Positions 214 through 53,633 of a stretch of 64,000 bases of DNA are shown here, piece by piece. This DNA is from an uncultured archaeon (GTDB lineage: Archaea > Nanobdellota > Nanobdellia > Woesearchaeales > UBA583): the NCBI GenBank assembly GCA_937138345.1, contig CAKZOW010000117.1, forward strand, positions 37,572 through 101,571, read 5' to 3'. Below the pieces are notes generated by a model. It had not been told where the DNA came from. It made no database searches and saw nothing but the letters and a program-made list of their open reading frames with translations. The translations under genes and the position numbers were made by a program. Position 1 is the stretch's first letter, and each line of letters begins with the position of its first letter.

Positions 214-729
214 AATACTGTTTTTAATGTGACGCTGTTACACGTCTATGTTAATTAATGACCTTTTAACTCATAAGATTCTCTCTTATGAAACTCAATC
301 CGCAGTTGCTCTAACACATTGCTGCTTAATCACATATCCCCTACACCCATTGTTAGAGCATGGCAAGGCTGTCTTTTGTGAACTGTAACTTGAGAGATTT
401 CAACTTTTATTTATACTCGTTTAAGTCAATCGTCAGATTAATTTCGAGTTAGGTATTACCCTTTTAATTCTTTCTCTTTCTGTCTCCTTAATTTAATAAG
501 TTCTTTAGAAGAAAGTGCGCCTCTTTCACGCTTTTGTGCCTCTAGGATATCTATATCCATATCTGCTAACTCGTTATGAGCATCTTGAGCTTTAGCTCTC
601 ACTTCAGCTTCTTTTACACTTCTAGTACGAGTTTCACCATCCTTGATAAATTTTTATTACTTCGGATAATTCTTTAAGATTTGTAGCTGAATTAACCAAT
701 CTCCATTTATAAATGTCTGTCATATTAAT

Positions 730-2891: not shown

Positions 2892-3329
2892 TTAATAATG
2901 AAAAACGTGGAAAAAGCCGTTATTAGCCATTTCATAAACATCATCTCTCCAATCTTGGTCGAAGAAATACTCATCTCTTGAAGGCAACTCGTCCTTATCT
3001 AAGTAACCTAGTGTACATCTCTGTAGTTTCTCATCATAGAGTACCACAAAGAATATATTCTCTAAAGAATTATCTAAGTCGTTTACATGAATTTTCTTAG
3101 CTATATCTCTATTAGGCTTATCCTTAAACAATAGTACGATGTTTATTTTAGTGTCAGGATTGCAAGCAAGGTATACTGTACTTGTGTCAATATCTACAAA
3201 TTGATTTCCCTCTAATTGAAATGTTCCAATAGAAGTATCTGAACAATGTACGTGTTTGAATCCTGTACAACTACTTAACCAAGCTATTGCTAGGATGATT
3301 AAGTAGATCGATAACTTATTTTTCTTCAT
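2892..3329 (-). CDS. putative lipoprotein
   Basis: 145 aa. N-terminus MKKNKLSIYLIILAIAWLSSC is a signal peptide with lipobox LSSC. Confidence 0.6.
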   Translation of the reverse strand: MKKNKLSIYLIILAIAWLSSCTGFKHVHCSDTSIGTFQLEGNQFVDIDTSTVYLACNPDTKINIVLLFKDKPNRDIAKKIHVNDLDNSLENIFFVVLYDEKLQRCTLGYLDKDELPSRDEYFFDQDWRDDVYEMANNGFFHVFHY

Positions 3330-3427: not shown

Positions 3428-3871
3428 TTACTCATGATATACATTTATGTTGAATGATTTAATACCATATGCCTGATATGTACTTTTCAGTACGTCATTT
3501 ACATACAACCTGATTTCTATGATTTCTGAACCATTTTCAATATAATCAGTTGCAAATTTAAGCCTTTGTCTAAATCTATTGTGATTACTTAATTGTTCAT
3601 CCCAGTAAAACTGAATTATTCCTATAGCATCATAGTGAGTATATGAGAACATTTTCGTCAATGATACAGAAGATATTTTTATATCATCTATGTACATTTT
3701 CTCTGGAGTAATAGAAATACTATTAGTATCACCAAACTCCTGTAAATCTTTGAATAGAGTATTTAACTCCAATTCTTTCTGTAATTCTACTACTGGTACT
3801 ACTGGTAATACTTCATCTGTACAAGACGAAAATAACGACAGTAATGCTAAAAATGTTAATAATTTTTTCAT
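3428..3871 (-). CDS. putative lipoprotein
   Basis: 147 aa. N-terminus MKKLLTFLALLSLFSSC is a signal peptide with a Cys lipobox. Confidence 0.6.
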   Translation of the reverse strand: MKKLLTFLALLSLFSSCTDEVLPVVPVVELQKELELNTLFKDLQEFGDTNSISITPEKMYIDDIKISSVSLTKMFSYTHYDAIGIIQFYWDEQLSNHNRFRQRLKFATDYIENGSEIIEIRLYVNDVLKSTYQAYGIKSFNINVYHE

Positions 3872-4197: not shown

Positions 4198-4599
4198 TTA
4201 TTTATAACGAGTAAATCCGTAGTGTTTAGCTATTTTATTTAATGTAGGGATACCATAATTAGTATAATTATCAATGTCATCTACAATTTCTCCATAAAAA
4301 GAATTATCATCTAACCAAATCCATGTTTTAAAATGTAGCATAGAACGTCCTGCCGAAAGACCTCTTTCATTTTCTGCTTTATTATATGCAAAATCTAGAT
4401 AATCTAGTATTTCTTTTTTAGGATCTGTACTAATTACCCATTTTACTGTACCAGCTTCAACTTCTTTAACATATTCCTCTTTTAAAAATGTTTTAGCATT
4501 ATCAAAAGTCATATAGTTAATTAAATCATTTTTTTGTGTTCCAAACAAATCACTAACCTTTTGGAATCTAACTTTAATTTCTTCTTGATTTCTTATCAT
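4198..4599 (-). CDS. hypothetical protein
   Basis: 133-aa ORF; the iteron-like repeats lie immediately upstream of its start. Confidence 0.55.
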   Translation of the reverse strand: MIRNQEEIKVRFQKVSDLFGTQKNDLINYMTFDNAKTFLKEEYVKEVEAGTVKWVISTDPKKEILDYLDFAYNKAENERGLSAGRSMLHFKTWIWLDDNSFYGEIVDDIDNYTNYGIPTLNKIAKHYGFTRYK

Positions 4600-5469: not shown

Positions 5470-5555
5470 AATTTAATTTTTAATAAGTTTATAAAATAGG
5501 GAGGTAAAATAATTTACGCTGTTAAATATTTAAAACCCTCCCTGATGAAAAATAG

Positions 5556-5627
5556 AGCCAATGGTAGGAATCGAACCTACTTACTACTAAGATTGTAACC
5601 TAGCGCATTCCATAATGCTACATTGGC
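5556..5627 (-). tRNA. tRNA (72 nt) with apparent anticodon ACA (A34); isotype uncertain, Cys-decoding if genuine
   Basis: Cloverleaf derived by hand: acceptor GCCAATG/CATTGGC, D-stem GCAT/ATGC, anticodon stem CTAGG/CTTAG with loop TTACAAT, T-arm GTAGG-TTCGATT-CCTAC, discriminator T. Confidence 0.6.
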
Positions 5628-9325: not shown

Positions 9326-10198
9326 ATGAAAGGAATATACGGAATAACAAATGCAGTAAACGGTAAAGTCTATGTAGGGTCTAGTAAGTCTATCTCTAGA
9401 AGATGGAAGGAACATAGAAAAATGCTAAGAGGTAATATTCATCACTCTAGTCACTTACAGTACTCTTGGAACAAATATGGTGAAGAAAACTTTACTTTTG
9501 AAGTTATTGAAGAAGTAGAGGATGTAGAGAGAATCTTTGAAAGAGAGGCTCATTGGATAATAGAATGGAATACTCTAGATGCCAAGTACGGTTACAACAT
9601 GTGCCTACCAAACGGAGGAGCAAAAAGAGAAGAATCTATACAAAAATTAAGAGACCACTGGAATGTAACAGTACCTCATAATTACATAGGTTGTCATAAA
9701 GAATACCTAGAAATGAAGGCTAAAGGGTATGAGAAGGTAGGTATGAAATGGTTAAAGAAGGATAGGGTTAAAGGATTTAGCCGTACTAAAAGAGCAGTAG
9801 ACCAGTACGACTTTAATTTCACTTTAATAGGTTCTTACGATAGTATAATAGATGCTGCTAGAGCTACAGGTTTATCAGACAAGATAGGTGGTTCTTGTAG
9901 AGGAGATAAGAAGTCTTGTGGTGGATTCTATTGGAAGTTTAGAGAAGAGTCCTTAGAGGAGCTTAAAACGCGTGTACAAATAAAAGATACTAAACTGATG
10001 TGCGGGATTACTCAAGTAAAAGTATACGAATACCAAGGGAAAAGAAGTCTACATAAGAAAAATTTCGATACTTACAGAAAGAACAAAGCTATAAAAATGG
10101 TAGAAGTATACATGGTACCATCCAAGATAGAGAGGAAGAGATTAACACCAGAACAAATCAGTATATCTAACTACAAATATCTAGAAACACTTAATTAA
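9326..10198 (+). CDS. GIY-YIG family homing endonuclease (free-standing)
   Basis: N-terminus GIYGITNAVNGKVYVGSSKSISRRWKEH carries the GIY...YVG motif with the conserved Arg and Glu; the C-terminal half is basic and DNA-binding-like. 290 aa. Confidence 0.8.
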   Translation: MKGIYGITNAVNGKVYVGSSKSISRRWKEHRKMLRGNIHHSSHLQYSWNKYGEENFTFEVIEEVEDVERIFEREAHWIIEWNTLDAKYGYNMCLPNGGAKREESIQKLRDHWNVTVPHNYIGCHKEYLEMKAKGYEKVGMKWLKKDRVKGFSRTKRAVDQYDFNFTLIGSYDSIIDAARATGLSDKIGGSCRGDKKSCGGFYWKFREESLEELKTRVQIKDTKLMCGITQVKVYEYQGKRSLHKKNFDTYRKNKAIKMVEVYMVPSKIERKRLTPEQISISNYKYLETLN

Positions 10199-10217
10199 TT
10201 TTTACTACCTTTATAGT

Positions 10218-10595
10218 ATGAAGGACAAATATTGGGATGCAGTGTACAGACCAGATAACCCTAGGGAATGTGGTATACTAACAGAAGACGATGAGTTGGT
10301 ACTAGACGTACTTGATGTAGATTACTCGACTATAGCCTACATAGTCGGTATACATAATAATTCTGTTAGAGATAGGAGAGAGCCTAGGAGACTAATGTTC
10401 TCGGAGACTGGTGACAGATTCGAAATGTTAGTACAAAATAAGTATAATACAGGAGAAGCACTTCATAAAGGCGAGTTAAAGATAACTGTAGTTAAAGGTA
10501 ATAAAAGGACTAGGTTACAGAAGTTTTTGAATAGGATTTACAAAAAGTGGTATCCTGAAATTAATACAATAAAAGTAGAGCATGAGAGAGATTAA
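10218..10595 (+). CDS. hypothetical protein
   Basis: 125-aa ORF. Its upstream element TACCTTTATAGT-ATG resembles the one at 9326 (TATCTTTACAGT-ATG). Confidence 0.5.
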   Translation: MKDKYWDAVYRPDNPRECGILTEDDELVLDVLDVDYSTIAYIVGIHNNSVRDRREPRRLMFSETGDRFEMLVQNKYNTGEALHKGELKITVVKGNKRTRLQKFLNRIYKKWYPEINTIKVEHERD

Positions 10596-10884
10596 AGATA
10601 TTATACCTATTACAGCTAAAAGATTAGGTATACCTGAAGAGGAATTAGCTAGACATGTAAAACAGTATGAGAAAGATTTAAAAGACGCTTTAGCTAATAA
10701 GCCTTATTTAGAGTACGATTTTTACTTCCTAGGTAAACTAAGGTACATGAAAAATCCTCTTAAAAAAGTAATAAAGAACTTTAGTAACAAGGGATTTGAC
10801 GTAGAGCACTATAAGAAAGTTTTGAAACTTTTCGACATAGATTACGAAATAAAACGTAAAAGATGGAATAAGAGTAGTGAATAA
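10582..10884 (+). CDS. hypothetical protein
   Basis: 100-aa ORF. Confidence 0.45.
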   Translation: MREIKDIIPITAKRLGIPEEELARHVKQYEKDLKDALANKPYLEYDFYFLGKLRYMKNPLKKVIKNFSNKGFDVEHYKKVLKLFDIDYEIKRKRWNKSSE

Positions 10885-10924
10885 TAATTTTTTTTATTAT
10901 ATTTGTGTATACAAATGAATAAAA

Positions 10925-11257
10925 ATGAAAAGAACGCACCCTATAGTGTTAAAAGTAGGTAAAGTAGTGTTAGTAGAATTTCAACTGAAATGGATGCTAC
11001 ATCCTAAACCTATTACAGGTAAAGATTTAAAAGTACTAGCTTATGTATTCCTATATAAAGGAAAAGCTATTGAGAAGATGTTAGAGGACGGAGTATCTAA
11101 GAGTAAGAAGAGTTTAGAGAACACTATATCGACTTACAGGAAATTAGGTGTAATACAGGGATTCCAAGAGAAGACGATACTTAATCCGGCTCTTAACGCT
11201 TTGACACAAGATTTGTCATACACAATAAATTTTAAACTAGATGATACGTTGGATTAG
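10925..11257 (+). CDS. hypothetical protein
   Basis: 110-aa ORF. Confidence 0.45.
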   Translation: MKRTHPIVLKVGKVVLVEFQLKWMLHPKPITGKDLKVLAYVFLYKGKAIEKMLEDGVSKSKKSLENTISTYRKLGVIQGFQEKTILNPALNALTQDLSYTINFKLDDTLD

Positions 11258-11582
11258 GAACTATAGAAAGTCTACTAAAAAGCTTACGTGGGAAAATGTA
11301 AAGAACTACTTTGCCGCTAAGAGGAGACAAAGGAGAATACAGTTAATTGAGGATACTTTTTTTTCTGGTCCAGGACTAAAACCAATACCGGGAGCTAAGA
11401 CAGTAGTTTGGCGAGAAAAACAAGTAAAGAAATTCTCACCAATCTGTTTAAAGCAAGGTTATTGTAAAGAATGTTACTGTTCGTTTGAGGATGGTTTATT
11501 ATACGAAGAAAAAGCCTGTGAAGGTGGATGCTACCCAAATTGGGAAGAATCAAAAAAATTAGCAAATGATATTCAAGAGTAA
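11241..11582 (+). CDS. hypothetical Cys-rich protein
   Basis: 113 aa with a CKECYCS...CEGGC cysteine cluster; possible metal binding. Confidence 0.45.
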   Translation: MIRWIRNYRKSTKKLTWENVKNYFAAKRRQRRIQLIEDTFFSGPGLKPIPGAKTVVWREKQVKKFSPICLKQGYCKECYCSFEDGLLYEEKACEGGCYPNWEESKKLANDIQE

Positions 11583-11880
11583 AAATATTAAAGTAGGAAG
11601 TAAAGTTAGGACAGATGCTCCTTTCACTTTCGAAGGTAAAGCAAGTACAGATTATAAAAATATTAAAGCGACTCCTAGTTGTGGATGTACAGGTGCCACA
11701 TTTAGAGTACTAAGAAATAGTCAATGGCAACCTTCAACAAGGGTGGCAGAAGGCGAAGCCTTTAGAGTTACAGGTAAGTTGAATAACGTACCTACTAATG
11801 GATCTGTTACTAAAAAAGTGACTATTACGGCTACGGGATTGGCTCCTATTCCTTTACTATTCACAATGTATTTAGTATGA
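11566..11880 (+). CDS. DUF1573-like protein
   Basis: 104 aa. Contains PSCGCTGATF, resembling the SCGCT signature of DUF1573 (a Bacteroidota family, recalled from memory). Confidence 0.4.
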   Translation: MIFKSKNIKVGSKVRTDAPFTFEGKASTDYKNIKATPSCGCTGATFRVLRNSQWQPSTRVAEGEAFRVTGKLNNVPTNGSVTKKVTITATGLAPIPLLFTMYLV

Positions 11881-12749
11881 TTTTTCACGCAGATACTCAT
11901 TCCTATTACAATGGAGATGAAAAATACTTAGGCGTTACTTCTACAATAGGTAAAATGAAACAACCTACTGATTGGGATCAGATAGCAGAGAATTACGTGA
12001 ATAAAAAAACACGTAGAGAATTGTTAGAGGACCTAGCTAAAAAGTGGAAGATTACTTTCAGACAAGCTAGAGAGAAGTGGGGTAATGAAGAGTTTACAGG
12101 TCCTTGGATTAGAACTGTCTGGAAAGATAAATCAGAAAGAGCATTAGCAGGTGGTAGTTTCTTCCATGATTGGAAAGAGATACAAGATTCTGATACTTGC
12201 TTCTACAACCCAGTTGTAAATAACAAGAAGACTCTTTTAGACCTGAATGAGTTAACTGATGGTACTTACTTAGAATTAGGAGTATACGCACATCAGTACT
12301 ATACTTGTGGACAAGTAGATAAGATTAAATTTGAAGGAAAGTACTTTGATATTTCTGATTACAAAACAGATGCAGAGAAACCTTCAACAGAAACTAAGGC
12401 TTATTGGAATAGTAATACAGGTAGAAGTGAGGTAAAGAAGTTTATATCTCCCTTATCACATATACCAGAAACTAATTACTACAAACATGCCTTACAGATG
12501 TCTACTTATTCTAGGATGTTAGAATTATACAAAGGTTATAAGTGCAGGAGTTTGACTGTGAAGTATGTACACACAGAATATCGACATCCCTTACAAGCTG
12601 GAGATGATTTAGTTATACATGAAGAACCTGAGTTCGATAGAGTACGAGTATTCTTAGGGTTAGAAGATATTGAATTACCTTATTTAAAAAAAGAAGCAGA
12701 AGCTATCTTAAAATACAATAGAAATGCCTACAGACAAAAAAACCGATGA
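11877..12749 (+). CDS. PD-(D/E)XK nuclease, RecB/Cas4/YqaJ-like
   Basis: 290 aa. GQVDKIKFEGKYFDISDYKT supplies the D...(D/E)xK motifs, followed by ALQMSTY (the QhxxY motif of RecB-family nucleases). Confidence 0.55.
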   Translation: MIFHADTHSYYNGDEKYLGVTSTIGKMKQPTDWDQIAENYVNKKTRRELLEDLAKKWKITFRQAREKWGNEEFTGPWIRTVWKDKSERALAGGSFFHDWKEIQDSDTCFYNPVVNNKKTLLDLNELTDGTYLELGVYAHQYYTCGQVDKIKFEGKYFDISDYKTDAEKPSTETKAYWNSNTGRSEVKKFISPLSHIPETNYYKHALQMSTYSRMLELYKGYKCRSLTVKYVHTEYRHPLQAGDDLVIHEEPEFDRVRVFLGLEDIELPYLKKEAEAILKYNRNAYRQKNR

Positions 12750-13569
12750 ATATTACAAGCGACTAGATATAATATCTGCTAAAAAGTTTTATGCTGGACG
12801 TGATTCTTGTATAAATTCTTCGCAATATCTAGGATGGAATGGTATGGCTACTAGTATAACGGATTCAACTGTTTCATCAAAAACAAAACTAATAGGAGGT
12901 ACTTTTATACAAGAAAGTCCTTATATGGTGCAAATATGTAAATCAAACAAAATGCAATCAACATTATTTTTAGACGTAGATAATACATTGATAGTGTCCA
13001 AAGATGGTTCACTGTTTCCAACAGTAGATAACTGGGTATTCAAAGCAGGTATTTTGGAAACTTTGATTAAGAAAGTCAGGGAGTATGACCAAGTGATTCT
13101 AGTAACTAATCAGGGCGGTGTAGATGCAGGTTTCAAAACACCTCAAGAAGTAGAACGCTATATCAGTGAAGTTTGTCACGGATTGGAAGTAGTTACTAGT
13201 ATTCAGGCGAAAACATTCATTGCGTATATAAATGAGGACAGAAAGCCAGTATTAGGTAATTTCATCAAGGATTTAACTAGGCTTAATGAGTTAACTCACT
13301 TAGAAGAGTATGCAGGACTTAACTATGATGCTAAAGTGAATGTGTTTGATAACATTAATCTTAATCAATCTACAATGGTAGGAGATGCTTCAGGATTAAC
13401 TAGAGTATTAACTAAGAAAGGTAAATTTGTTAGATTAGGAAAAGATTTAGAGATAGCGGAAGAAGATGAAGGTTATATCGTTAAAAAAGACTTCTCAGAT
13501 TCAGACAAATTATTTGCGGAGAATATGGGAGTATTTTATCAAGATATTGAAGAATTTTTAAACAAATAA
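12724..13569 (+). CDS. HAD-superfamily phosphatase (subfamily IIIA / polynucleotide 3'-phosphatase-like)
   Basis: 281 aa. LFLDVDNTLI is the DxDxT motif I; VILVTNQGGV is the TNQ motif typical of HAD IIIA enzymes (GmhB, Pnk phosphatase). Confidence 0.6.
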   Translation: MPTDKKTDEYYKRLDIISAKKFYAGRDSCINSSQYLGWNGMATSITDSTVSSKTKLIGGTFIQESPYMVQICKSNKMQSTLFLDVDNTLIVSKDGSLFPTVDNWVFKAGILETLIKKVREYDQVILVTNQGGVDAGFKTPQEVERYISEVCHGLEVVTSIQAKTFIAYINEDRKPVLGNFIKDLTRLNELTHLEEYAGLNYDAKVNVFDNINLNQSTMVGDASGLTRVLTKKGKFVRLGKDLEIAEEDEGYIVKKDFSDSDKLFAENMGVFYQDIEEFLNK

Positions 13570-13571
13570 AC

Positions 13572-13850
13572 ATGGATATTTATACTAAGAAGTGTACTAA
13601 AGCAGAAATTCAAGAGTTATTTGATAATCTTCCTGAAGAACCAAACTGGAAAGTAGTTACTCCTGAAAGACCTTGGATGTATATATATGATAAGTCGAGA
13701 CACATTTACGTAGTCAATGAAGAAGTAGCCCAACAAAACGCTTCAGAAATGTACTGGTTTTTATCTAAAGTTGATAAATCAAAAGTACATTATACCAAAG
13801 AATACAATCCTGAAAAAGCTTTAGCAAGTATTAACTCTACAGAAGTATGA
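13572..13850 (+). CDS. hypothetical protein
   Basis: 92-aa ORF with ATGA-type coupling to its neighbours. Confidence 0.45.
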   Translation: MDIYTKKCTKAEIQELFDNLPEEPNWKVVTPERPWMYIYDKSRHIYVVNEEVAQQNASEMYWFLSKVDKSKVHYTKEYNPEKALASINSTEV

Positions 13851-15145
13851 TAGATCCGATGTTAAAAGAATTTGGATACGAATTAGGAGAAGTACTTTCT
13901 AAAAAAGATATAAGTACGAAAAGACTGGAATGTAATAATAAGATGAGAACACTTGGATATGAAACACCTAGTACAGTCTACTATTTTCATGATCCATTAA
14001 GTCATTTTTCTACAGGTTCAATGAGATTATCCTTTGACAAAGATATGAATGAAATTTATCATAAATTATATAAAATGGACATTTACAATCAAAAAATCCC
14101 TACATACAAAGTAGGTACAGAAGGTTTAGAGCAGACAGGAGAAATGGGTATTCCTTTAGTAAGAGGAAGTAAAGATTCTCCAGGTCAAAAAGGAGATGAT
14201 TTTGATATAGATAAACCTTTAACTGAAAATGAAAAATTCCAAGTAATGTCTGCCTATGGTAAAAATTTTGAAGATTTTTTGATGAAATCTAGTAAGATGA
14301 TAATTCCTGATATTACAAAGGATAAGCCTGTAGCTAATACAGGTATTCCTGGTAAAGGGGGTGAGAAGTTTACAGTTAAATTTAGTAAAGATATGTTTAA
14401 CGCAGTTAGATTTCCCACAGTTACACCTGATAACCCTAGTGAGTATGCTTTAGCGATGCTGGCTAATGGTCTACATATTTACAAGGATGGTGAATGGCGA
14501 GAATTACCTTTAAAACCAGAAGAAGCGTTCGTATCTAAAACTAACGTTGAAACTAAATTAGGTGATAGGTATACAGATAGTGTTAACGAAAAAAATTATA
14601 TATATGAAGGGTTTTGGGTAGAAAGTTATAAGTCTATAGAGAATATGCCTGATGCAATACTTTCCTTAAATAAAGATGTAAGACGTACTTATGTACCTGA
14701 AGAGTTGGGTACCTTTTGCTTATGTCCGGATACTAATAAATTCTATGAATGGAAAGGTCGTTGGGTAGAATTTTTTGAATTCGAAGTAGAGTTGAAAGAA
14801 CATCCAGGATATAAGGTGTTTAGAGATAAAGTAAAAGAAGGTAAGTGTGAACTTGGTATAGATAATCCTCAACTAAAAGAATCAGAAGGTAAGTTACCTT
14901 ACGAATTAGAATGGGGCTTTATAGAAGGTATGGCTAAGAGAATGCAAGCTAACAAAGGAAAGTATGAACCTTATAACTGGAAGAACAATAAGATACCAGT
15001 ACATAAACTCAAAGAAGCCTTATCTCGACACTTTATCGAAGTACAGAAAGGTAACTACGATGATGAAGGATTATATGGACATTTATATGCTTTGGCTTGT
15101 AATTCTATGATGATTATCGAACAGTTAAAAATGAAAGCTGTCTAA
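13847..15145 (+). CDS. hypothetical protein with C-terminal DUF5664-like (dATP/dGTP pyrophosphohydrolase-associated) domain
   Basis: 432 aa. The C-terminus YNWKNNKIPVHKLKEALSRHFIEVQKGNYDDEGLYGHLYALACNSMMIIEQL matches the pattern nW..g......A..RH......G..D.eSG..HLaha..N..f that I recall for DUF5664 phage proteins. Confidence 0.4.
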   Translation: MIDPMLKEFGYELGEVLSKKDISTKRLECNNKMRTLGYETPSTVYYFHDPLSHFSTGSMRLSFDKDMNEIYHKLYKMDIYNQKIPTYKVGTEGLEQTGEMGIPLVRGSKDSPGQKGDDFDIDKPLTENEKFQVMSAYGKNFEDFLMKSSKMIIPDITKDKPVANTGIPGKGGEKFTVKFSKDMFNAVRFPTVTPDNPSEYALAMLANGLHIYKDGEWRELPLKPEEAFVSKTNVETKLGDRYTDSVNEKNYIYEGFWVESYKSIENMPDAILSLNKDVRRTYVPEELGTFCLCPDTNKFYEWKGRWVEFFEFEVELKEHPGYKVFRDKVKEGKCELGIDNPQLKESEGKLPYELEWGFIEGMAKRMQANKGKYEPYNWKNNKIPVHKLKEALSRHFIEVQKGNYDDEGLYGHLYALACNSMMIIEQLKMKAV

Positions 15146-15265: not shown

Positions 15266-15607
15266 ATGAGAATAGTTAACTTAGAAGAGTTTAGAAAACT
15301 CCCAGAAGGTGTTCTTTTTATGGAGTATCATTCTACAGCATTTGGTCCTTTGACTATTAAAGGTGAAACTTGGGAAAGTGACTATCTAGAATGTATACCT
15401 TTTAGAGATTTGGATACTCAAGATTCCAAAGAATATTACGAGGTACTGAAGCACATGGAGGAAACAGGTGAACCTAGACCAATTGAGATTTCATATAGTA
15501 GAGAAGGTTTATTTGAAAAAGATAAAAAGTACGCTATTATTGAGAAGGGAGATTATGATAAATTTTTAAACCATATACAAGATTTAGGATATTATGAAGG
15601 TAATTGA
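15266..15607 (+). CDS. hypothetical protein
   Basis: 113-aa ORF. Confidence 0.5.
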   Translation: MRIVNLEEFRKLPEGVLFMEYHSTAFGPLTIKGETWESDYLECIPFRDLDTQDSKEYYEVLKHMEETGEPRPIEISYSREGLFEKDKKYAIIEKGDYDKFLNHIQDLGYYEGN

Positions 15608-15728
15608 TTTTTTAAAACAGTTAGATGCTGGAGCATTAGTAGAAGAGATGTTTCCAGAGTTTGTCGAAGATGGAGAAGGCGGTGTTCGTATAGATAGTAA
15701 CTATGATTCTAAACAACTAGGAGCTGAA

Positions 15729-15800
15729 ATGGCTTTTTAGCCCAAATGGACGATGTTGTGCTGTTGTCGGTCGTTTTCTTTTTTTCGGCAGTAGCACAAT
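15729..15800 (+). repeat. related GC-rich imperfect inverted repeat (TTGTGCTGTTGTCGG ... CGGCAGTAGCACAA) with GGACGATGTTG motif
   Basis: Long imperfect hairpin with a T-rich loop immediately upstream of the DUF4326 gene. Confidence 0.5.
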
Positions 15801-15807
15801 TTTAATT

Positions 15808-16284
15808 ATGGATGTATCATTGAAAGGACTTGCACAAGAAATGCGAGAAAATTTATTAGAAGAAATTTCAAATTTTAAAAAGAAAATATACATGAATGGA
15901 ACAATAATTAATAATCCAAAACGAATAAAAAGACAATATTACAAGAAACTTCCACCCAAATCAAAATCAGTAACAAGACCTGGCAAGTGGGGCAATCCTT
16001 TTTTAATTGTTTTAGAGGATGATGTTTATTTTGTCAAAGATAAAAGCGGAAATTATTGGGGCAATAATAATGAAGGATATAAAACAAAAGAATTAGCAGC
16101 AAAAAAATCGGTTCAATGTTTTAAAGGCTATTTATCAGCTAAAGTAATGAAAGGCGAATTAAGTCTTTCAGCTTTTGACAATATTGACAATATAGCTTGT
16201 TTTTGTAAATTAGAAGAAACTTGTCACGCTGATATTATTATTGATTTTGTTTCTCAATATCGAAATGGTCAGACTTTTTTCTAA
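15808..16284 (+). CDS. DUF4326-family protein (NADAR/YbiA-related fold per the literature)
   Basis: 158 aa. Contains TRPGKWGNPF, ...KKSVQCFKGYL and IACFCKLEETCHADIIIDF, matching the DUF4326 hallmarks (WGNPF, then C.C....CH near the C-terminus). Confidence 0.65.
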   Translation: MDVSLKGLAQEMRENLLEEISNFKKKIYMNGTIINNPKRIKRQYYKKLPPKSKSVTRPGKWGNPFLIVLEDDVYFVKDKSGNYWGNNNEGYKTKELAAKKSVQCFKGYLSAKVMKGELSLSAFDNIDNIACFCKLEETCHADIIIDFVSQYRNGQTFF

Positions 16285-16345
16285 TGACCGACAATGCCTG
16301 CAACCGCAGCCGTATGAGCGGCTGTGAAATATGGACGCTGTTGCA
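16283..16345 (+). repeat. related GC-rich hairpin element (CAGCCG-TATGAG-CGGCTG) with flanking motifs GACCGACAATGC and GGACGCTGTTGC
   Basis: It shares the GAC(C)GACAATGC left motif with 18233 and the GGACG(A/C)TGTTG right motif with 15735 and 17121. Confidence 0.6.
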
Positions 16346-16390
16346 TTTATTATGCACTCGTCTTTTTTTAAACTTTTTTAGACTTTTAAA

Positions 16391-17071
16391 ATGAAAAACA
16401 CTTATTCAGATTTTTTAAATTTATTTAGTACTTTTTGTGTGGAGGTAGGTCTGACCGAAAACCATGCAAAGGAAATGATGACGACATTCGACATTCGTTT
16501 TGATTATATCGAAGCTTATGGAGACAATGAACAAGGCTTAGAATTAGCTTATAATTATTATAAAACAACTGTAATTCCTCACAAAGTAGCTGTTTTTAAA
16601 GAAGCTATGAAAATGGAGGACGCATTTAAAAGACAAAGAAAAGAAGATTTAATCGTTCAACTTCGTGACCATGACTTGTCTAAATTTTGCTTTGAAGAAC
16701 TTGCTTATGCCGATGTAGATTTTAAAAACTTTAAAGACAACCCAAAATGGGTTATAGATAATTTTAAAAAAAGTTGGCATCACCATAAATCAGTTAACCC
16801 ACATCATCCAGAATATTGGTTTGATGTAAAGAAAGACGGAACAGCAAATCCAATTAAAATTCCGACTCATTTTTTAGCTGAAATGGTTGCAGATTGGCGA
16901 GGTGCAGGGATTACTTATGGAAACCCTATTGGGTATTGGTTAAAAAAAAATTTACACACTTTTCGTTTTCATAAAGAAACGGCTATGGAGTTGGCTGTAC
17001 TTTTGGCTAAATACTGTCAAATAGAAACAAAACTAAAAGATGACAGTGATGAAGTTTTGTTTTGTGTTTGA
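16391..17071 (+). CDS. hypothetical protein (His-rich segment HHHKSVNPHHPEYW)
   Basis: 226-aa ORF flanked on both sides by GC-rich hairpin repeat elements. Confidence 0.55.
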   Translation: MKNTYSDFLNLFSTFCVEVGLTENHAKEMMTTFDIRFDYIEAYGDNEQGLELAYNYYKTTVIPHKVAVFKEAMKMEDAFKRQRKEDLIVQLRDHDLSKFCFEELAYADVDFKNFKDNPKWVIDNFKKSWHHHKSVNPHHPEYWFDVKKDGTANPIKIPTHFLAEMVADWRGAGITYGNPIGYWLKKNLHTFRFHKETAMELAVLLAKYCQIETKLKDDSDEVLFCV

Positions 17072-17080
17072 TGGTGCATA

Positions 17081-17374
17081 ATGTCTGGAACAATGCACGG
17101 TCACGGCTTTTGCCGTGGCTGGTCGATGTTGCTTTTATTAGAGGGCGTTTTCTTTATTTTTTTATTTATGAGTTTTAAAATCGGCGACAAAGTACAATAC
17201 TCTATATCATATTTGACAAAAAAGAATATACATTCAATGGATATTGTTTTAGCTGCCTTTGTTGTGGATGGATTTGATGTTTATTTTGGATGCGATAAAG
17301 AATTAAGATTAAAAAGAAAAGATGGCGTTTATATTTATGCGAACGCAAAAGATTTAGAGAAAATAATTGATTGA
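17081..17374 (+). CDS. hypothetical protein; annotated start probably too far upstream (true start likely Met near 17170)
   Basis: The first about 29 codons are read through the 38-bp GC-rich repeat at 17087-17124. The downstream part (MSFKIGDKVQYS...) has normal AT-rich coding character. Confidence 0.4.
   Translation: MSGTMHGHGFCRGWSMLLLLEGVFFIFLFMSFKIGDKVQYSISYLTKKNIHSMDIVLAAFVVDGFDVYFGCDKELRLKRKDGVYIYANAKDLEKIID
17087..17124 (+). repeat. 38-bp GC-rich repeat GGAACAATGCACGGTCACGGCTTTTGCCGTGGCTGGTC (copy 1), containing hairpin CACGGC-TTTT-GCCGTG
   Basis: Identical 38-mer at 18248-18285. GC content is far above the roughly 30% of its surroundings. Confidence 0.85.
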
Positions 17375-17691
17375 CATTTGTTTTAATTCAAGTACAAAAA
17401 AAAATTAAGAATATGAAACTTACAAAAAGACAAATACAAAAAATTAGAACAGCTCATAAAAAAGCATTGAGACTGGAGGAACTTTTATCTAGTGCAAGGC
17501 AAGATTTGTCTTTTGTTATTTCATCAATCACAAAAATAGAGGGTAATGTTGATTTTCTGCAAGGCGATGGTTTCGGTTTTACACCAGAAGTAGACAATGA
17601 TACACATATACCTGTTGATGAATTATTAAATTTTGCAGAAAAAGGAAGAGATATAAATATAGAGTTGGTATTAGATAATTTATCTATTTAA
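17371..17691 (+). CDS. hypothetical protein (start possibly at internal Met near 17413)
   Basis: 106-aa ORF. Confidence 0.45.
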   Translation: MTFVLIQVQKKIKNMKLTKRQIQKIRTAHKKALRLEELLSSARQDLSFVISSITKIEGNVDFLQGDGFGFTPEVDNDTHIPVDELLNFAEKGRDINIELVLDNLSI

Positions 17692-17795
17692 TGCCCTCTA
17701 ATGCTTAGCTCGGTGACTGGTGGTGACGCCTGTCACCGCTGGGCAATGAGCGTTCTTATTGTCGGCTGCTTCATTGCGCTAATGCTCGTTCTCAA
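17692..17795 (+). repeat. GC-rich hairpin element (GGTGAC-GCCT-GTCACC) with CTAATGCT direct repeats
   Basis: Hairpin at 17722-17737. The listed ORF 17701-17886 is probably an artefact of this element. Confidence 0.5.
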
Positions 17796-17851
17796 CTATT
17801 CGATTTTTTCAAATAGTTCAATTTGTTTTTTCACTCATTTTAATAAAAAAC

Positions 17852-18232
17852 ATGCAACTATTATATTTTGGAACAACTATATATGATAAAGGATTTGGTG
17901 TTTTTGACATAACAGAAAATATATATCAAAAAATACATCATAACTTTTCAAAATTAAGTACAATTGGTCAATCATCTGAATTAGCATATACTTATTCAAA
18001 TTCTAAATTTAAAAACGGGACTGTTCATTTTGGAAGGTTTAAAGGTGGAACATTCTTAATTGTAGCAGGAAGCCCAATTGACAAAAGAGGTAATACAGTT
18101 TCTTGTTTTTTTACTTTTGAAAATAAAGACATTTCTTATTCTGACTTTTATAAAAAGATAAAAGACAATATGATTTTTAAAAAAACAACTGAAATTTTAA
18201 AAGCTAACTTTGATGATGTTATTTTCTTTTAG
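17852..18232 (+). CDS. hypothetical protein
   Basis: 126-aa ORF; it ends just before the second copy of the 38-bp repeat. Confidence 0.45.
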   Translation: MQLLYFGTTIYDKGFGVFDITENIYQKIHHNFSKLSTIGQSSELAYTYSNSKFKNGTVHFGRFKGGTFLIVAGSPIDKRGNTVSCFFTFENKDISYSDFYKKIKDNMIFKKTTEILKANFDDVIFF

Positions 18233-18247
18233 TTGACGACAATGCTA

Positions 18248-18285
18248 GGAACAATGCACGGTCACGGCTTTTGCCGTGGCTGGTC
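18248..18285 (+). repeat. 38-bp GC-rich repeat (copy 2), identical to 17087-17124
   Basis: Exact direct repeat. The upstream flank TGACGACAATGC resembles TGACCGACAATGC at 16283. Confidence 0.85.
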
Positions 18286-18399
18286 ATGGAGGATTGAAAA
18301 TGTATCTAAAGCAGGGTGGACCTATCACAGGAATTATGTACAATGGTCGATTAGTAAAAGACGTAAAAAAGTTTTTAAAAATATTTGAATTAATAGAGG

Positions 18400-18903
18400 A
18401 TGAATAAAATATTTACGATAGAAGATGGTAAGGTTGTAGTAACACCTGATGTACTAAACATACCTTGGTTAAGGGTAGTCTATGATAAGTACGAGTTACC
18501 TATGGCTGCTTTGAATTATTTACATTATATGTCTGACCCTATAAGTTCTTACTTTAACTTAGGGGAAGATGAAAGAAGTGATAGATTATTGAAGGAGTTT
18601 CCAGGAGATTACAAAATAACAGATATTGAGATTACAGAAGCTTTCAACAATCTAATAGACTTGAGAGTTAACTACGACCCTATTGTTAGAATGAAAGTAG
18701 CTAACGAAGTTATGATGAATAAATTATCAATAATGTGTGAAGGTATGATATTAGATGATAGTAAAGAAGGTAATCTAGATAAAGCTTTAAAAATATTAGA
18801 GAAGACCGGTAAATTTTCTGACAACCATGTTCGCCTATCTAAAGTAGTAGAAGAGAAGTTAAACAAAGGTAGAGGAGGAGTTCAACTTAGTTATGATATG
18901 TAG
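18400..18903 (+). CDS. hypothetical protein
   Basis: 167-aa ORF. Confidence 0.55.
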   Translation: MNKIFTIEDGKVVVTPDVLNIPWLRVVYDKYELPMAALNYLHYMSDPISSYFNLGEDERSDRLLKEFPGDYKITDIEITEAFNNLIDLRVNYDPIVRMKVANEVMMNKLSIMCEGMILDDSKEGNLDKALKILEKTGKFSDNHVRLSKVVEEKLNKGRGGVQLSYDM

Positions 18904-19371: not shown

Positions 19372-19440
19372 ACCACTTTAACTCAGGGATAGAGTACCTT
19401 CATATGAAGGAAGTCGTAGGTTTGAGTCCTACAAGTCGTA
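19372..19440 (+). tRNA. non-canonical tRNA-like gene (69 nt). It has acceptor, D and T arms, a short variable loop, and an anticodon loop ATATGAA with apparent anticodon ATG
   Basis: Hand-derived structure: acceptor ACCACTT/AAGTCGT (one mismatch), D-arm ACTC-AGGGATA-GAGT, T-arm GTAGG-TTTGAGT-CCTAC. The anticodon stem CCTTC/GGAAG has a C-A mismatch and sits inside a perfect palindrome CCTTCATATGAAGG. The variable loop is only 2 nt. Confidence 0.35.
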
Positions 19441-19451
19441 CTACTTTACTA

Positions 19452-19525
19452 GCCTCCTTAGCTCAGGTGATTAGAGCACCTCACTTGTAATGAGGATGTC
19501 ACAGGTTTGACTCCTGTAGGAGGCT
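19452..19525 (+). tRNA. tRNA-Thr (anticodon TGT)
   Basis: Acceptor GCCTCCT/AGGAGGC, D-arm GCTC-AGGTGATTA-GAGC, anticodon arm CCTCA-CTTGTAA-TGAGG, variable loop ATGTC, T-arm ACAGG-TTTGACT-CCTGT, discriminator T. Confidence 0.8.
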
Positions 19526-19584
19526 CAATAAGTTTTAATATTTTCCTTTTTACCGTGCGTAGGTATTAGATAAAATATTTATAA

Positions 19585-19657
19585 TGCAGGATAGCTGAGT
19601 CGGTTTAGCACAAGATTCATAATCTTGAGTACGATGGTTCGAGTCCATCTCCTGCGT
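19585..19657 (+). tRNA. tRNA-Met (anticodon CAT; could be elongator Met, initiator, or Ile2 if lysidine-modified)
   Basis: Acceptor TGCAGGA/TCCTGCG (T1-G72 wobble), D-arm GCTG-AGTCGGTT-TAGC, anticodon arm CAAGA-TTCATAA-TCTTG, T-arm GATGG-TTCGAGT-CCATC. Confidence 0.75.
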
Positions 19658-19686
19658 CTAATTGTTAACAAACTAAATTAATTACA

Positions 19687-19938
19687 ATGAGTAGGTTACC
19701 GTTCCGTATAGTAATAGCAGGAATATTATTAGTATTACTACCTTTCTTATTAGGTACAGGTTATTTCACCCTTATACAGGGTAAGAGTGTAGGTGATCCT
19801 GTAAAGTTATATGAGATTCTAATTGGTCTTGGGATTATCTTTGGAGGATATTTTGCCTTATTTTTAATTGCTGTATCTAAAGGAGGTGACTGGATTAGAG
19901 ACTGGATTAACAGTGTGACTAAAAAAGAAAATGATTAA
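19687..19938 (+). CDS. small two-TM membrane protein (83 aa); holin-like or membrane-associated
   Basis: Two hydrophobic helices (VIAGILLVLLPFLLGTGYF and ILIGLGIIFGGYFALFLIAV) and a charged C-terminus. Confidence 0.5.
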   Translation: MSRLPFRIVIAGILLVLLPFLLGTGYFTLIQGKSVGDPVKLYEILIGLGIIFGGYFALFLIAVSKGGDWIRDWINSVTKKEND

Positions 19939-20059
19939 AGAATTTAAGTTACAAAGAATGTATCGATACATCAGATATAGTTAAGTGCAATTGATTATAT
20001 CTACGTTTACTTAGGTTAATTAGGTTCGAATCCTAGTAGTAAAATTTGTAACTTAGTAC

Positions 20060-20133
20060 GGATAATTGGTCTAGCTGGCTAAGACGCTATCCTGTCACGG
20101 TAGAGATCACGGGTTCGAATCCCGTATTATCCG
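20060..20133 (+). tRNA. tRNA-Asp (anticodon GTC)
   Basis: Acceptor GGATAAT/ATTATCC (perfect), D-arm GTCT-AGCTGGCTA-AGAC, anticodon arm CTATC-CTGTCAC-GGTAG, variable loop AGATC, T-arm ACGGG-TTCGAAT-CCCGT, discriminator G. Confidence 0.85.
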
Positions 20134-20148
20134 CTAAAATTAAATACT

Positions 20149-20433
20149 ATGAATCCAATAAAAGAATTTTTAAAAGCTAAAGGTACAGTAGAATTTGTTG
20201 CTGACGAGAATAAATGGGAGAAATACCCTATGCAGATTGTAGTAGAAGGAGAAGTTAAAACTGCTTTTATACAAGATGCTGATAAATCTCATAATGATGA
20301 GGAGCATGTATTAGTAGTACTACTTATGGTAGAGGGTAAAGTATTTAAAGTAGTAAAAGTTTGCCAAGCTCCAGTTACTTGTGAAATTGATTGGGATACA
20401 GTAACTTGTGCTACTACTATAGAAAGTATGTAA
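20149..20433 (+). CDS. hypothetical protein
   Basis: 94-aa ORF starting 15 nt after tRNA-Asp. Confidence 0.5.
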   Translation: MNPIKEFLKAKGTVEFVADENKWEKYPMQIVVEGEVKTAFIQDADKSHNDEEHVLVVLLMVEGKVFKVVKVCQAPVTCEIDWDTVTCATTIESM

Positions 20434-20592
20434 AATTTCTAACTCCTTACGATTATTCTAGGTTTATGTTTACCTTTGAGGTTTAATCTATTGTAGGAGT
20501 TAGTTTTTAAGGGAAAGTATGCAAGTGGTTAAAGCACGCGCATTGTAAATGCGTCACTTCGGTTTCAGAGGTTCGAATCCAAGTAGGCACAC

Positions 20593-20850
20593 ATGGAAAA
20601 GTTAGTAGAGAATGGTTTAGAATTTACTAGATACAATTGCTTAGAAGGGTATGTGGATTATACTCGTCTAAACGCAGGACATGATCCTAATAAAAAGAAA
20701 CCTTTTTCTACTTTAAATCTAATAGTAAACTGGTTACGTTTTAAAGGACATCCTTGGGAACTCTATGATACTAAAAGAGTTCGAGAGATGTTATCTAACA
20801 AGGATGGCTTTACATCAGAAGAACTTTATTTTTTAATTGATAACCGATAG
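20593..20850 (+). CDS. hypothetical protein
   Basis: 85-aa ORF sandwiched between the tRNA-like element at 20511-20590 and tRNA-Cys. Confidence 0.5.
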   Translation: MEKLVENGLEFTRYNCLEGYVDYTRLNAGHDPNKKKPFSTLNLIVNWLRFKGHPWELYDTKRVREMLSNKDGFTSEELYFLIDNR

Positions 20851-20921
20851 TCTACTCAATATTGGTATAGAGGTGGGTCTGCAAAACCTTCTTAATTCCG
20901 GTTCGATTCCGGAGATTATCT
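20846..20921 (+). tRNA. tRNA-Cys (anticodon GCA)
   Basis: Acceptor GATAGTC/GATTATC (one G-T pair), anticodon stem TGGGT/ACCTT with loop CTGCAAA, T-arm TCCGG-TTCGATT-CCGGA. The D-arm is slightly irregular. Confidence 0.65.
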
Positions 20922-20944
20922 CTATTCTTAATCAAAATTAAATT

Positions 20945-53241: not shown

Positions 53242-53633
53242 AGACTAGAAACTGGTTTCCAGAACATACGGAAATCTATACAACCCAAGGATGGGTAAAT
53301 ATTAGTATAATAGAGAAAAAAGACTTTTCATTAGTAGGATACGAAAGTGAAGAGATTGTTGAATGTAAATTAAAAGAATTTAATAAACATTCCTTTGAAG
53401 GTCCTATCCTTAGTTATAAAGCAAAAGATATATTTTTAGAAGGTCTGTATATAGAGAACTACATAACTAGATACAGAGCCACATTAGACCTACCTAAAAT
53501 AAGGTACTCACATTACAACGGTTATCTGTATAATATAGTCACAACTACAGGAAATTTTATTATCAGAAGCCTGAAAGGAAAACATAACAATAACGATTAT
53601 AATATAGTAAAATGCCAAATAAGTGTAAAATAG
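53235..53633 (+). CDS. hypothetical protein
   Basis: 132-aa ORF overlapping the start of the giant gene. Confidence 0.45.
   Translation: MLKTRNWFPEHTEIYTTQGWVNISIIEKKDFSLVGYESEEIVECKLKEFNKHSFEGPILSYKAKDIFLEGLYIENYITRYRATLDLPKIRYSHYNGYLYNIVTTTGNFIIRSLKGKHNNNDYNIVKCQISVK

Follow-up and report, generated by a model that had tools for sequence, protein, structure and literature searches.

A putative array of mobile gene cassettes joined by attC-like elements in a divergent crAss-like phage

What are the GC-rich hairpin elements that recur, over 2.6 kb, between the small accessory genes of an otherwise compact phage gene block? This question is raised by the region 15.73-18.30 kb of a 64-kb stretch of DNA (contig CAKZOW010000117.1; hereafter the window), where five structured intergenic elements (E1 to E5) separate small accessory open reading frames (ORFs). 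Judged from its hallmark genes (TerL, portal, capsid and crAss ring proteins), the window belongs to a divergent crAss-like phage, whose TerL is less than 30% identical to those of catalogued crAss phages. The full genome measures about 128 kb (a public contig of 127,896 bp encodes the proteins of the window), so that our ORF scans cover about half of it. We propose, with a probability of roughly 70%, that four mobile gene cassettes (C1 to C4), lined up in an array, make up the 2.6-kb stretch and that the GC-rich elements are the joints between them, functioning as attC-like recombination sites. The proposal is built on the unit structure of the cassettes, the hybrid composition of the joints, their homology to a second family of sites and the turnover of cassettes at the sites of that family.

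Each element starts at or just past a stop codon and stops at a start codon. Elsewhere in the rightward gene block (9.3-22.6 kb) genes abut or overlap, save for the tRNA region and three unstructured gaps of 62-173 nt. Scanning the 64 kb for non-coding GC islands (40-nt stretches with at least 57.5% GC) returned only 16281-16344, 17082-17135, 17691-17769 and 18243-18298, which correspond to E2-E5; all remaining GC islands were coding sequence or tRNA. A preliminary description of this DNA had listed at least five GC-rich elements with 6-bp GC stems. Five are present, and the stems were recovered in both sequences and folds of E2-E5 (CAGCCG/CGGCTG in E2, CACGGC/GCCGTG in E3 and E5, GGTGAC/GTCACC in E4). 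The GC contents given for them were too high, since whole spacers have 40-51% GC and element cores 51-55%, values of 60-65% being reached only by 40-nt peaks. E1 is a weak member of the set, with a core of 53% GC, and a stem of just 4 bp (GGCT/AGCC) that overlaps the stop codon of the upstream gene g48. Sequence comparison also agreed with the reported identical 38-mer (GGAACAATGCACGGTCACGGCTTTTGCCGTGGCTGGTC), present at 17087-17124 in E3 and at 18248-18285 in E5. This repeat lengthens to 45 nt at 93% identity (repeat family D3), and the same 38-45-mer core links different cassettes in E3 and in E5, the cores being in this sense mosaic. Shorter words are shared as well: all three window occurrences of GG[AT]CG[AC]TGTTG, on either strand, lie in E1, E2 and E3, and four of the ten window copies of ACAATGC lie in E2, E3 and E5.

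Alignment of the five spacers revealed a common plan. On the 5' side, the stop codon is followed by a 9-10-nt 5' box ending in AAT, a 5-nt spacer and an inner box, which reads TGCAAC, or GGAAC then AATGC. A GC-rich hairpin, variable between elements, then leads to the core word GGWCGMTGTTGC; after a spacer of 3-4 nt, a 3' box that opens with ATT or GTT is followed by a T-run, and a short leader connects this to the start codon. The conserved core of the joint is written ..AAC AATGC / GGWCGMTGTTGC and encloses the variable hairpin. Calculated from the coordinates, the span from box to box is 72, 73 and 73 nt in E2, E3 and E4, compared with 70-76 nt in the second family described below. E5 lacks the GTTG core, the 3' box and anything past the hairpin, and a GGAGGA precedes the start of the following gene, g35; its similarity to E3 stops at the G of GATG|TTGC if one deleted base is allowed in the alignment. 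We considered E1 and E5 as clean half-sites around a single insertion, an idea that was dropped, as E1 retains a degenerate hairpin and a core overlapping the end of g48. The parts of the elements are the following:

15729-15807, + strand: E1, degenerate first junction (sequence reading and alignment)
15731-15742, + strand: mini hairpin of E1, GGCTTTTTAGCC
15748-15758, + strand: core word of E1, GGACGATGTTG
15763-15772, + strand: left box of C1 (in E1), GTTGTCGGTC, then a T-run
16285-16390, + strand: E2, C1/C2 junction, 72 nt from box to box
16286-16295, + strand: right box of C1 (in E2), GACCGACAAT
16305-16326, + strand: hairpin of E2, CAGCCG/CGGCTG
16333-16343, + strand: core word of E2, GGACGCTGTTG
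16349-16357, + strand: left box of C2 (in E2), ATTATGCAC, then a T-run
17072-17167, + strand: E3, C2/C3 junction, 73 nt from box to box
17074-17082, + strand: right box of C2 (in E3), GTGCATAAT
17098-17122, + strand: 10-bp hairpin of E3, within the 38-mer region
17121-17131, + strand: core word of E3, GGTCGATGTTG
17137-17146, + strand: left box of C3 (in E3), ATTAGAGGGC, then a T-run
17692-17851, + strand: E4, C3/C4 junction, compound, 73 nt from box to box
17693-17702, + strand: right box of C3 (in E4), GCCCTCTAAT
17703-17744, + strand: hairpin of E4, GGTGAC/GTCACC inside GCTTAGC/GCTGGGC; E4 holds a second hairpin
17758-17765 and 17792-17798, + strand: split left box of C4 (in E4), ATTGTCGG and TCAACTA, then a T-run
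18230-18243, + strand: right box of C4 (at E5), TAGTTGA+CGACAAT
18233-18299, + strand: E5, truncated last junction
18259-18283, + strand: hairpin of E5, in the 38-mer copy

The boxes of this plan do not pair as those of an ordinary palindrome would. Along the array, an element's 3' arm has its reverse complement not in the 5' arm of the same element but in that of the following one, on the far side of the intervening gene. Perfect complementary runs between the two ends of one cassette reached 9 nt for C1 (GTTGTCGGTC and GACCGACAAT), 9 nt for C2 (ATTATGCAC and GTGCATAAT), 10 nt for C3 (ATTAGAGGGC and GCCCTCTAAT) and 7 nt for C4 (ATTGTCG ... TCAACTA on the left, TAGTTGA-CGACAAT on the right), where a second 7-mer read by eye gives 7+7 nt. 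Arms of the same element were complementary over merely 4-6 nt. The two C1 boxes differ at one position, GTT versus AAT, which amounts to a G-T/G-U pair. Position-constrained shuffles gave P values of 0.005, 0.003, <0.0002 and 0.19 for C1, C2, C3 and C4, respectively. Significance was taken from these tests because an unconstrained scan of the window for 8-9-mer inverted repeats proved useless as a detector, returning 55 pairs compared with about 48 in shuffles. Since the arms are complementary across a gene and not within an element, the heritable unit is box'-T-run-ORF-box and every element is a hybrid joint. The ends of a cassette being mutually reverse complementary, the order ORF - box - core/hairpin - box' - T-run is obtained from every cassette by circular permutation. 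Joined head to tail, the predicted unit ORF-box-core/hairpin-box'-TTTTTT contains a complete palindromic site which is, formally, a terminator.

The same organisation was found on a set of short, phage-like metagenome contigs (ERZ6863xxx, here L170-L173) that encode an endolysin, an HNH endonuclease and a methyltransferase. On these contigs a site of 70-76 nt follows almost every cassette. Its 5' half reads R''(7 nt + AAC) - G + 4-5 nt - L''(GCATCT or GCATAT) - variable hairpin, and its 3' half L'(AGATGC or ATATGC) - 3 nt - R'(GTT + 7 nt) - T-rich tail. The R' of one site and the R'' of the following site were complementary at 10 of 10 positions in all 18 junction pairs, which represent nine distinct cassettes from L170, L171 and L172, whereas complementarity within an element was 4-8 of 10, reaching 10 only where adjacent cassettes share a box. 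The L boxes covary (GCATCT/AGATGC versus GCATAT/ATATGC), and double changes were seen in 7 of the 12 predicted pairs. As read from the sequences, the box triplet is AAC/GTT in this family versus AAT/ATT in the window. One L171 cassette has ends (left GTTGTCGGTCGTTTTCTTTATTTTTT, right TTTTTTTAATGACCGACAAC) that are near-identical to those of C1 with a different cargo, the C1 left box in E1 and its T-run closely matching the left end. Moreover, an L171 hairpin (GGTGACAGC-TTTT-GCTGG) resembles that of E3 and E5, and a homologue of the C1 cargo protein, 68% identical, is encoded within the L170 cassette array. By these resemblances the L170 family is homologous to the window elements.

These contigs also captured cassette turnover. 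Their shared DNA is 99.8-100% identical, and yet the same 97-aa gene has three different continuations (one in L170 and L173, one in L171, one in L172), and L170 contains an extra two-gene cassette relative to L171. All breakpoints fall within the R''/spacer/L'' part of a site. Two other kinds of repeated sequence were observed in L170. Between the genes of two-gene cassettes, at 3196-3265 and 4248-4315, a spacer with CCGCC...GGCGG followed by TTTTT looks like an ordinary terminator, without the box architecture. After two of the attC-like sites, an 88-nt repeat (2538-2625 and 3769-3856, 97% identity) holds a Bacteroidota -7-like box (TATCTTTG), so that some cassettes of this family may bring their own promoter.

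We compared the cargo and the flanking genes of the window array with those of related phages. The genes concerned are:

15266-15607, + strand: g113, left flank
15594-15740, + strand: g48, left flank
15808-16284, + strand: cargo of C1, DUF4326 protein of 158 aa (Pfam PF14216, E 1e-9)
16391-17071, + strand: cargo of C2, DUF5662 protein of 226 aa (Pfam PF18907, E 4e-25)
17168-17374 and 17413-17691, + strand: cargo of C3, g68 and g92, with an AT-rich 38-nt spacer between them
17852-18232, + strand: cargo of C4, g126, a 126-aa ORFan
18300-18407, + strand: g35, right flank
18400-18903, + strand: g167, right flank

The closest TerL relatives found were L128 (79% identity) and L129-L134 (73%). Both L128 and L129 retain g113 (47-50% identity) and g167 (66% identity) as conserved anchors, and the three phages carry unrelated genes in between, indicating that the region is hyperplastic. 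The exchangeable accessory modules suggested by the preliminary description are supported by this comparison, together with the complementary arms and the breakpoints of the L170 family. That description held that cassette shuffling should be given up if the motif were confined to this stretch and relatives had the same gene content; within the window the motif is indeed confined to it, but the gene content of the relatives differs. Neither g48 nor g35 had a tblastn match in L128 or L129, where the ORFs at equivalent positions look unrelated from their translations. Genes between the anchors of L128 and L129 are tightly packed, with no GC-rich spacers or elements, and no comparable intergenic GC-rich elements were seen in the more distant TerL relatives L165-L169 (about 50% identity). 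The elements are therefore not a general feature of the clade of the window phage. Homologues of the DUF5662 protein were found at 72% and 48% identity in unrelated phage contexts. On two contigs, L121 (DUF5662, 72%) and L174 (DUF4326, 67%), the cargo genes are present and the elements absent. No Pfam or PHROG match was obtained for g68, g92 or g126, and g126 had no homologue in the phage collection. The start used here for the 68-aa product of g68 (17168) differs from that in public gene calls. The ORFs starting at 17081 and 17701 plausibly result from reading through the repeats, as the preliminary description had it. The latter, a 61-aa ORF in E4 (17701-17886, + strand), has a hydrophobic segment (VLIVGCFIALMLVL); it might encode a small membrane peptide, but more probably arises only because the element is read through.

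How would such cassettes move? Each joint of about 73 nt is a hybrid that takes its 5' box from the upstream cassette and its 3' box and T-run from the downstream one. Under the proposal made above, recombination inside the conserved core would excise cassettes and insert them, most likely through a circular intermediate, as for integron cassettes or for the minicircles of promoter-early stem-loops (PeSLs). PeSL minicircles have been described in the T4-type phage literature. The candidate enzyme would be either a site-specific recombinase of host or phage acting on the folded site, or the homologous recombination machinery of the phage acting on the short core. In the transcript, the same hairpins and T-runs are predicted to punctuate the operon, probably by weak termination or RNA stabilisation.

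Several observations weigh against an array of mobile cassettes, or against a precise mechanism for it. Both ends of the window array, E1 and E5, are partial, and there is no empty site to compare. No variant of the window phage with other cassettes was found: public contigs that carry its proteins look identical, exact-protein look-ups returning only short contigs with gene order and gene lengths as in the window, which means that population variants were not found among them. Megablast and blastn searches of the region against INPHARED phages gave no match, and neither did L170; a search for relatives in IMG/VR through the flanking protein g432 returned none. Seven collection scans (IMG/VR, JGI metagenomes, GTDB genomes) with element patterns (ACAATGC..CGMTGTTGC, the E3 hairpin, the 3' core plus T-run, the full three-part pattern, an L170-type and an E3-specific pattern) revealed no further members, matches being chance ones in coding DNA or in high-GC contigs. 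As found, the element family is limited to the window phage and the ERZ6863xxx contigs, and is thus either of small size or poorly covered by sampling. Among the window ORFs scanned with Pfam and PHROG, none matched a recombinase of any kind. Breakpoints of the L170 family fall at no one fixed nucleotide (after AACG or after GCATCT), and the cores appear to move independently of both boxes, a behaviour that homology-driven exchange fits better than a precise integrase does. Finally, some assembly artefact is possible among the L170-L173 variants, which were all observed on short metagenome contigs.

The elements could be true integron attC sites, the region representing a cluster of attC sites without integrase (CALIN) into which the IntI of a host captured cassettes during infection by cutting GTT/AAC of the folded single strand. 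The layout of the L170 family, R''(xxxxAAC), 5-nt spacer, L'', variable hairpin, L', 3-nt spacer, R'(GTTxxxx), is the one expected; several of its boxes fit RYYYAAC/GTTRRRY exactly (GTCTAAC/GTTAGAC, ACCCAAC/GTTGGGT), and, as is the rule in integrons, the bases past GTT are those of the next cassette. In geometry and in its length of 50 nt, the inner part of E3 (CTGGAAC-AATGC-hairpin-TCGAT-GTTGCTT) matches experimentally validated phage attC sites such as TJE1_attC1 and P12002L_attC1, the similarity between E5 and E3 ends exactly at G|TT once the deleted base is allowed, and CALINs are documented in virulent phages, including a Bacteroidota phage (PMC9892861). However, the outer boxes of the window are AAT/ATT and not AAC/GTT, their complementarity of 9-10 nt goes beyond the 6-7 nt needed by integrons, no IntI was found among the window ORFs scanned with Pfam and PHROG, breakpoints vary, cores move independently of R'', and consistent bulged (extrahelical) bases were not identified in the folds. 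Moreover, a crude attC covariance model (R1), trained on six validated attC sites (PMC9892861, Table S3), gave no match at E1-E5 and only weak ones on the L170-family sites (14.8-17.3 bits, E 0.6-1.9), on the strand opposite to the ORFs. We regard true attC sites as possible but doubtful. A tentative place must also be kept for a PeSL-like process, in which regulatory repeats would serve as short homologies for phage recombination, crossovers excising and reinserting minicircles without a dedicated recombinase. Crossover points that vary inside conserved stretches, cores exchanged independently of boxes and a window that encodes no detected integrase but an exonuclease-like protein (11877-12749) all speak for it, as does the location of the array in a hyperplastic region, like PeSLs (PMC4122927); excision and reinsertion of circles by homology would also yield the signature of circular permutation. 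The preliminary description had likened the elements to PeSLs, and as module boundaries in a hyperplastic region they do resemble them. The analogy fails on its defining feature, the promoter: a sigma-70 scan gave a single 9/12 match within the elements, in E2, no better than matches across the whole scan (53 found versus 36 expected), and the Bacteroidota -7 box (TAnnTTTG) occurs in none of E1-E5. The elements are also clustered at one locus rather than dispersed, their shared core is short (about 10-45 nt) and diverged, and the strictly conserved pairing architecture and 73-nt length suggest a structure-specific process. A site-specific, integron-like process would be favoured by the attC-type architecture of the sites, their constant length, the conserved triplet at the edge of the boxes and the point, G|TT, where E5 ceases to resemble E3; the variable breakpoints, the independent cores and the lack of a recombinase among the scanned window ORFs would favour homology-driven, PeSL-like exchange.

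Explanations without mobility start from the RNA. The elements might be purely regulatory (terminators or mRNA-stabilising hairpins), their shared words reflecting common descent or convergent constraint. After each 3' box comes a T-run of 6-13 nt, the sense strand has the lower RNA minimum free energy in 5 of 5 window elements and 11 of 12 elements of the L170 family, several stems are lengthened by G-U pairs possible only on that strand (as read from the folds), and fold z-scores range from -2.4 to -4.9 across elements, E4 having the lowest. The sense-strand bias was initially a candidate for strong evidence of an RNA role and was downgraded, since z-scores against composition-matched shuffles are alike on both strands and the + strand is G-rich, so that part of the bias reflects the excess of G over C. 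The strong hairpins lie 12-40 nt from the T-runs, the closing boxes in the array pair over just 3-5 bp, and a consensus terminator scan called none of E1-E5. With Rfam 15 at gathering thresholds tRNAs alone were detected, and at E <= 1 the interval 15600-18450 gave a meaningless 15-bit CrcZ match. Regulation alone explains neither the complementarity across genes nor the cassette-sized polymorphisms at the elements, and we consider it unlikely. Alternatively, the complementarity might act in the polycistronic transcript, the boxes that flank an ORF pairing into gene-spanning stems for RNase III-like processing or protection. Perfect 9-10-nt complementarity that persists despite total sequence change between cassettes would agree with this, as would the lower free energy of the sense strand in most elements and the lone difference in C1, a G-T/G-U pair that RNA tolerates. 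A helix of 9-10 bp closing a loop of 0.4-0.7 kb is thermodynamically weak, though, and we know of no precedent for stems spanning each gene in phage operons. RNA pairing also leaves two things unexplained: the whole-cassette differences between near-identical strains, located precisely at these sites, and the identical cassette ends that two phages combine with different cargo. It appears to us very improbable. Going further, it is conceivable, if rather speculative, that Bacteroidota phages including the window phage share a dedicated integron-like system of cassette exchange with a non-IntI recombinase and folded sites of about 73 nt. These sites would combine cassette-specific outer boxes (AAC/GTT or AAT/ATT) with a conserved inner box and a variable hairpin, and through the system ORFan genes would pass one by one, as circles, from phage to unrelated phage and so build up hyperplastic regions.

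Several side observations were made during this work. The best window match of R1 lies at 309-358 (- strand, 17.9 bits, E 0.4), in a 240-nt intergenic gap of the leftward gene block; it reads CTCTAAC-AATGG ... AATGT-GTTAGAG, with a perfect 7-bp RYYYAAC/GTTRRRY pair, and may be either a further attC-like site or a product of chance. The rightward gene block opens with a gene for a free-standing GIY-YIG homing endonuclease (9326-10198, + strand, PHROG E 1e-29), and an HNH endonuclease is encoded within the L129 version of the hyperplastic region. In L128, TerL (10001-13246) is split by an intein with a LAGLIDADG domain; the TerL of the window is uninterrupted. The 432-aa protein at 13847-15145 (+ strand) looks like a fusion, its residues 76-116 matching a separate Acb2/Tad1-hairpin gene of L128 and L129 and its residues 338-428 the N domain of a dATP/dGTP diphosphohydrolase. 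On L122, from the same ENA study as L170, a direct repeat (ACCACGGGGATACACARCCAACATT; 3775-3800 and 4510-4535) lies ahead of a DUF5662 homologue and of the next gene, and looks like a phage-specific promoter. In the tRNA cluster (19372-20922), a tRNA called by Rfam at 19372-19440 was missed by ARAGORN, the tRNA-Cys called by ARAGORN at 20846-20922 was not listed by Rfam at gathering score, and two T-arm-like repeats (20009-20039 and 20556-20586) lie outside all called tRNAs. A leftward tRNA at 5555-5627 has the anticodon ACA. An ORF of more than 3,466 codons (53603-64000, + strand) runs off the end of the window and may be the gene for the giant virion protein or the RNA polymerase that crAss-like phages typically encode.

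How do the elements compare with known systems? Integron attC sites are about 57-141 bp long. Like them, the elements are imperfect palindromes of about 50-75 nt, with R and L inverted boxes, unpaired spacers and a variable hairpin. In the folds, an asymmetric internal loop (5 versus 3-4 nt) separates the R helix from the L helix, which carries the hairpin. All five window sites (within 2.6 kb, + strand) share one orientation, each immediately downstream of an ORF that looks promoterless. At the box edge three bases are conserved as a pair (in the L170 family, AAC/GTT), and the 3' box is part of the following cassette, whose own 5' box it complements. As for the consensus RYYYAAC/GTTRRRY, the L170 sites are all of the form xxxxAAC...GTTxxxx, some matching exactly, whereas the window boxes are AAT/ATT, with GTT only in E1; an inner pair YTGSAAC/GTTGYNT is present in E2, E3 and E5. 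As in CALINs, there is no adjacent integrase, and the cargo includes ORFans and a DNA methyltransferase. Qi et al. (2023, PMC9892861) reported such integrase-less attC clusters from virulent phages, among them a Polaribacter phage, and showed that they recombine with IntI1. Unlike attC sites, the elements have 9-10 nt of complementarity and a further outer helix where 6-7 nt would do, a T-run after the 3' box, breakpoints beyond G|TT and cores independent of R''; the sense strand, and not clearly the bottom strand, folds best, the crude covariance model does not match E1-E5, and the host of the array is a crAss-like phage. They differ from a complete integron in that no adjacent IntI tyrosine recombinase was found among the window ORFs scanned.

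PeSLs are stem-loops joined to an early sigma-70-type promoter in T4-type phages (Arbiol et al. 2010, PMC2839356; Comeau et al. 2014, PMC4122927). Both they and the present elements are repeated intergenic stem-loops that flank small ORFan genes in a hyperplastic region, with movement as circles plausible. PeSLs mark boundaries of indels or replacements between close relatives, and so do the homologous L170-L173 sites; the closest relatives found for the window phage are distant and element-free. PeSLs, by contrast, occur in many copies dispersed over a genome, and the window elements form one array, with none elsewhere in the 64 kb and no promoter found in them; to our knowledge, cassette-specific complementary arms have not been described for PeSLs. 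An intrinsic terminator shares with the elements a GC-rich hairpin and a downstream T-run, on the sense strand right after a stop codon, and the box-core-box'-TTTTTT of a circularised cassette would be a textbook one. In the array, however, the closing boxes are mismatched, the stable hairpin is 12-40 nt away from the T-run and the scan calls none; terminators, moreover, neither share cores nor pair across genes. Repetitive extragenic palindromes (REP), bacterial interspersed mosaic elements (BIME) and miniature inverted-repeat transposable elements (MITE) are likewise short, GC-rich, palindromic, repeated and intergenic. The elements have no target-site duplications or terminal inverted repeats, the inverted repeats flanking genes instead, no RAYT or transposase was found, and the copies are confined to one array.

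Outside the T4 group, the gain and shuffling of small accessory ORFans in virulent phages are largely unexplained. Here the sequence itself would record the mechanism, in complementary ends for each accessory gene and joints that are hybrids of two cassettes. Complementarity across a gene, and not within an element, provides a searchable signature for cassette arrays in other phages. Cassette-type exchange would be extended to a crAss-like phage and linked to a cassette pool shared with unrelated phages; if the elements were true attC sites, an abundant order of phages would exchange genes with integrons by an additional route. Our comparison places the elements closer to integron attC clusters than to PeSLs. 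What is new is a variant of known cassette-exchange systems, with cross-gene complementarity as its clean and reusable diagnostic.

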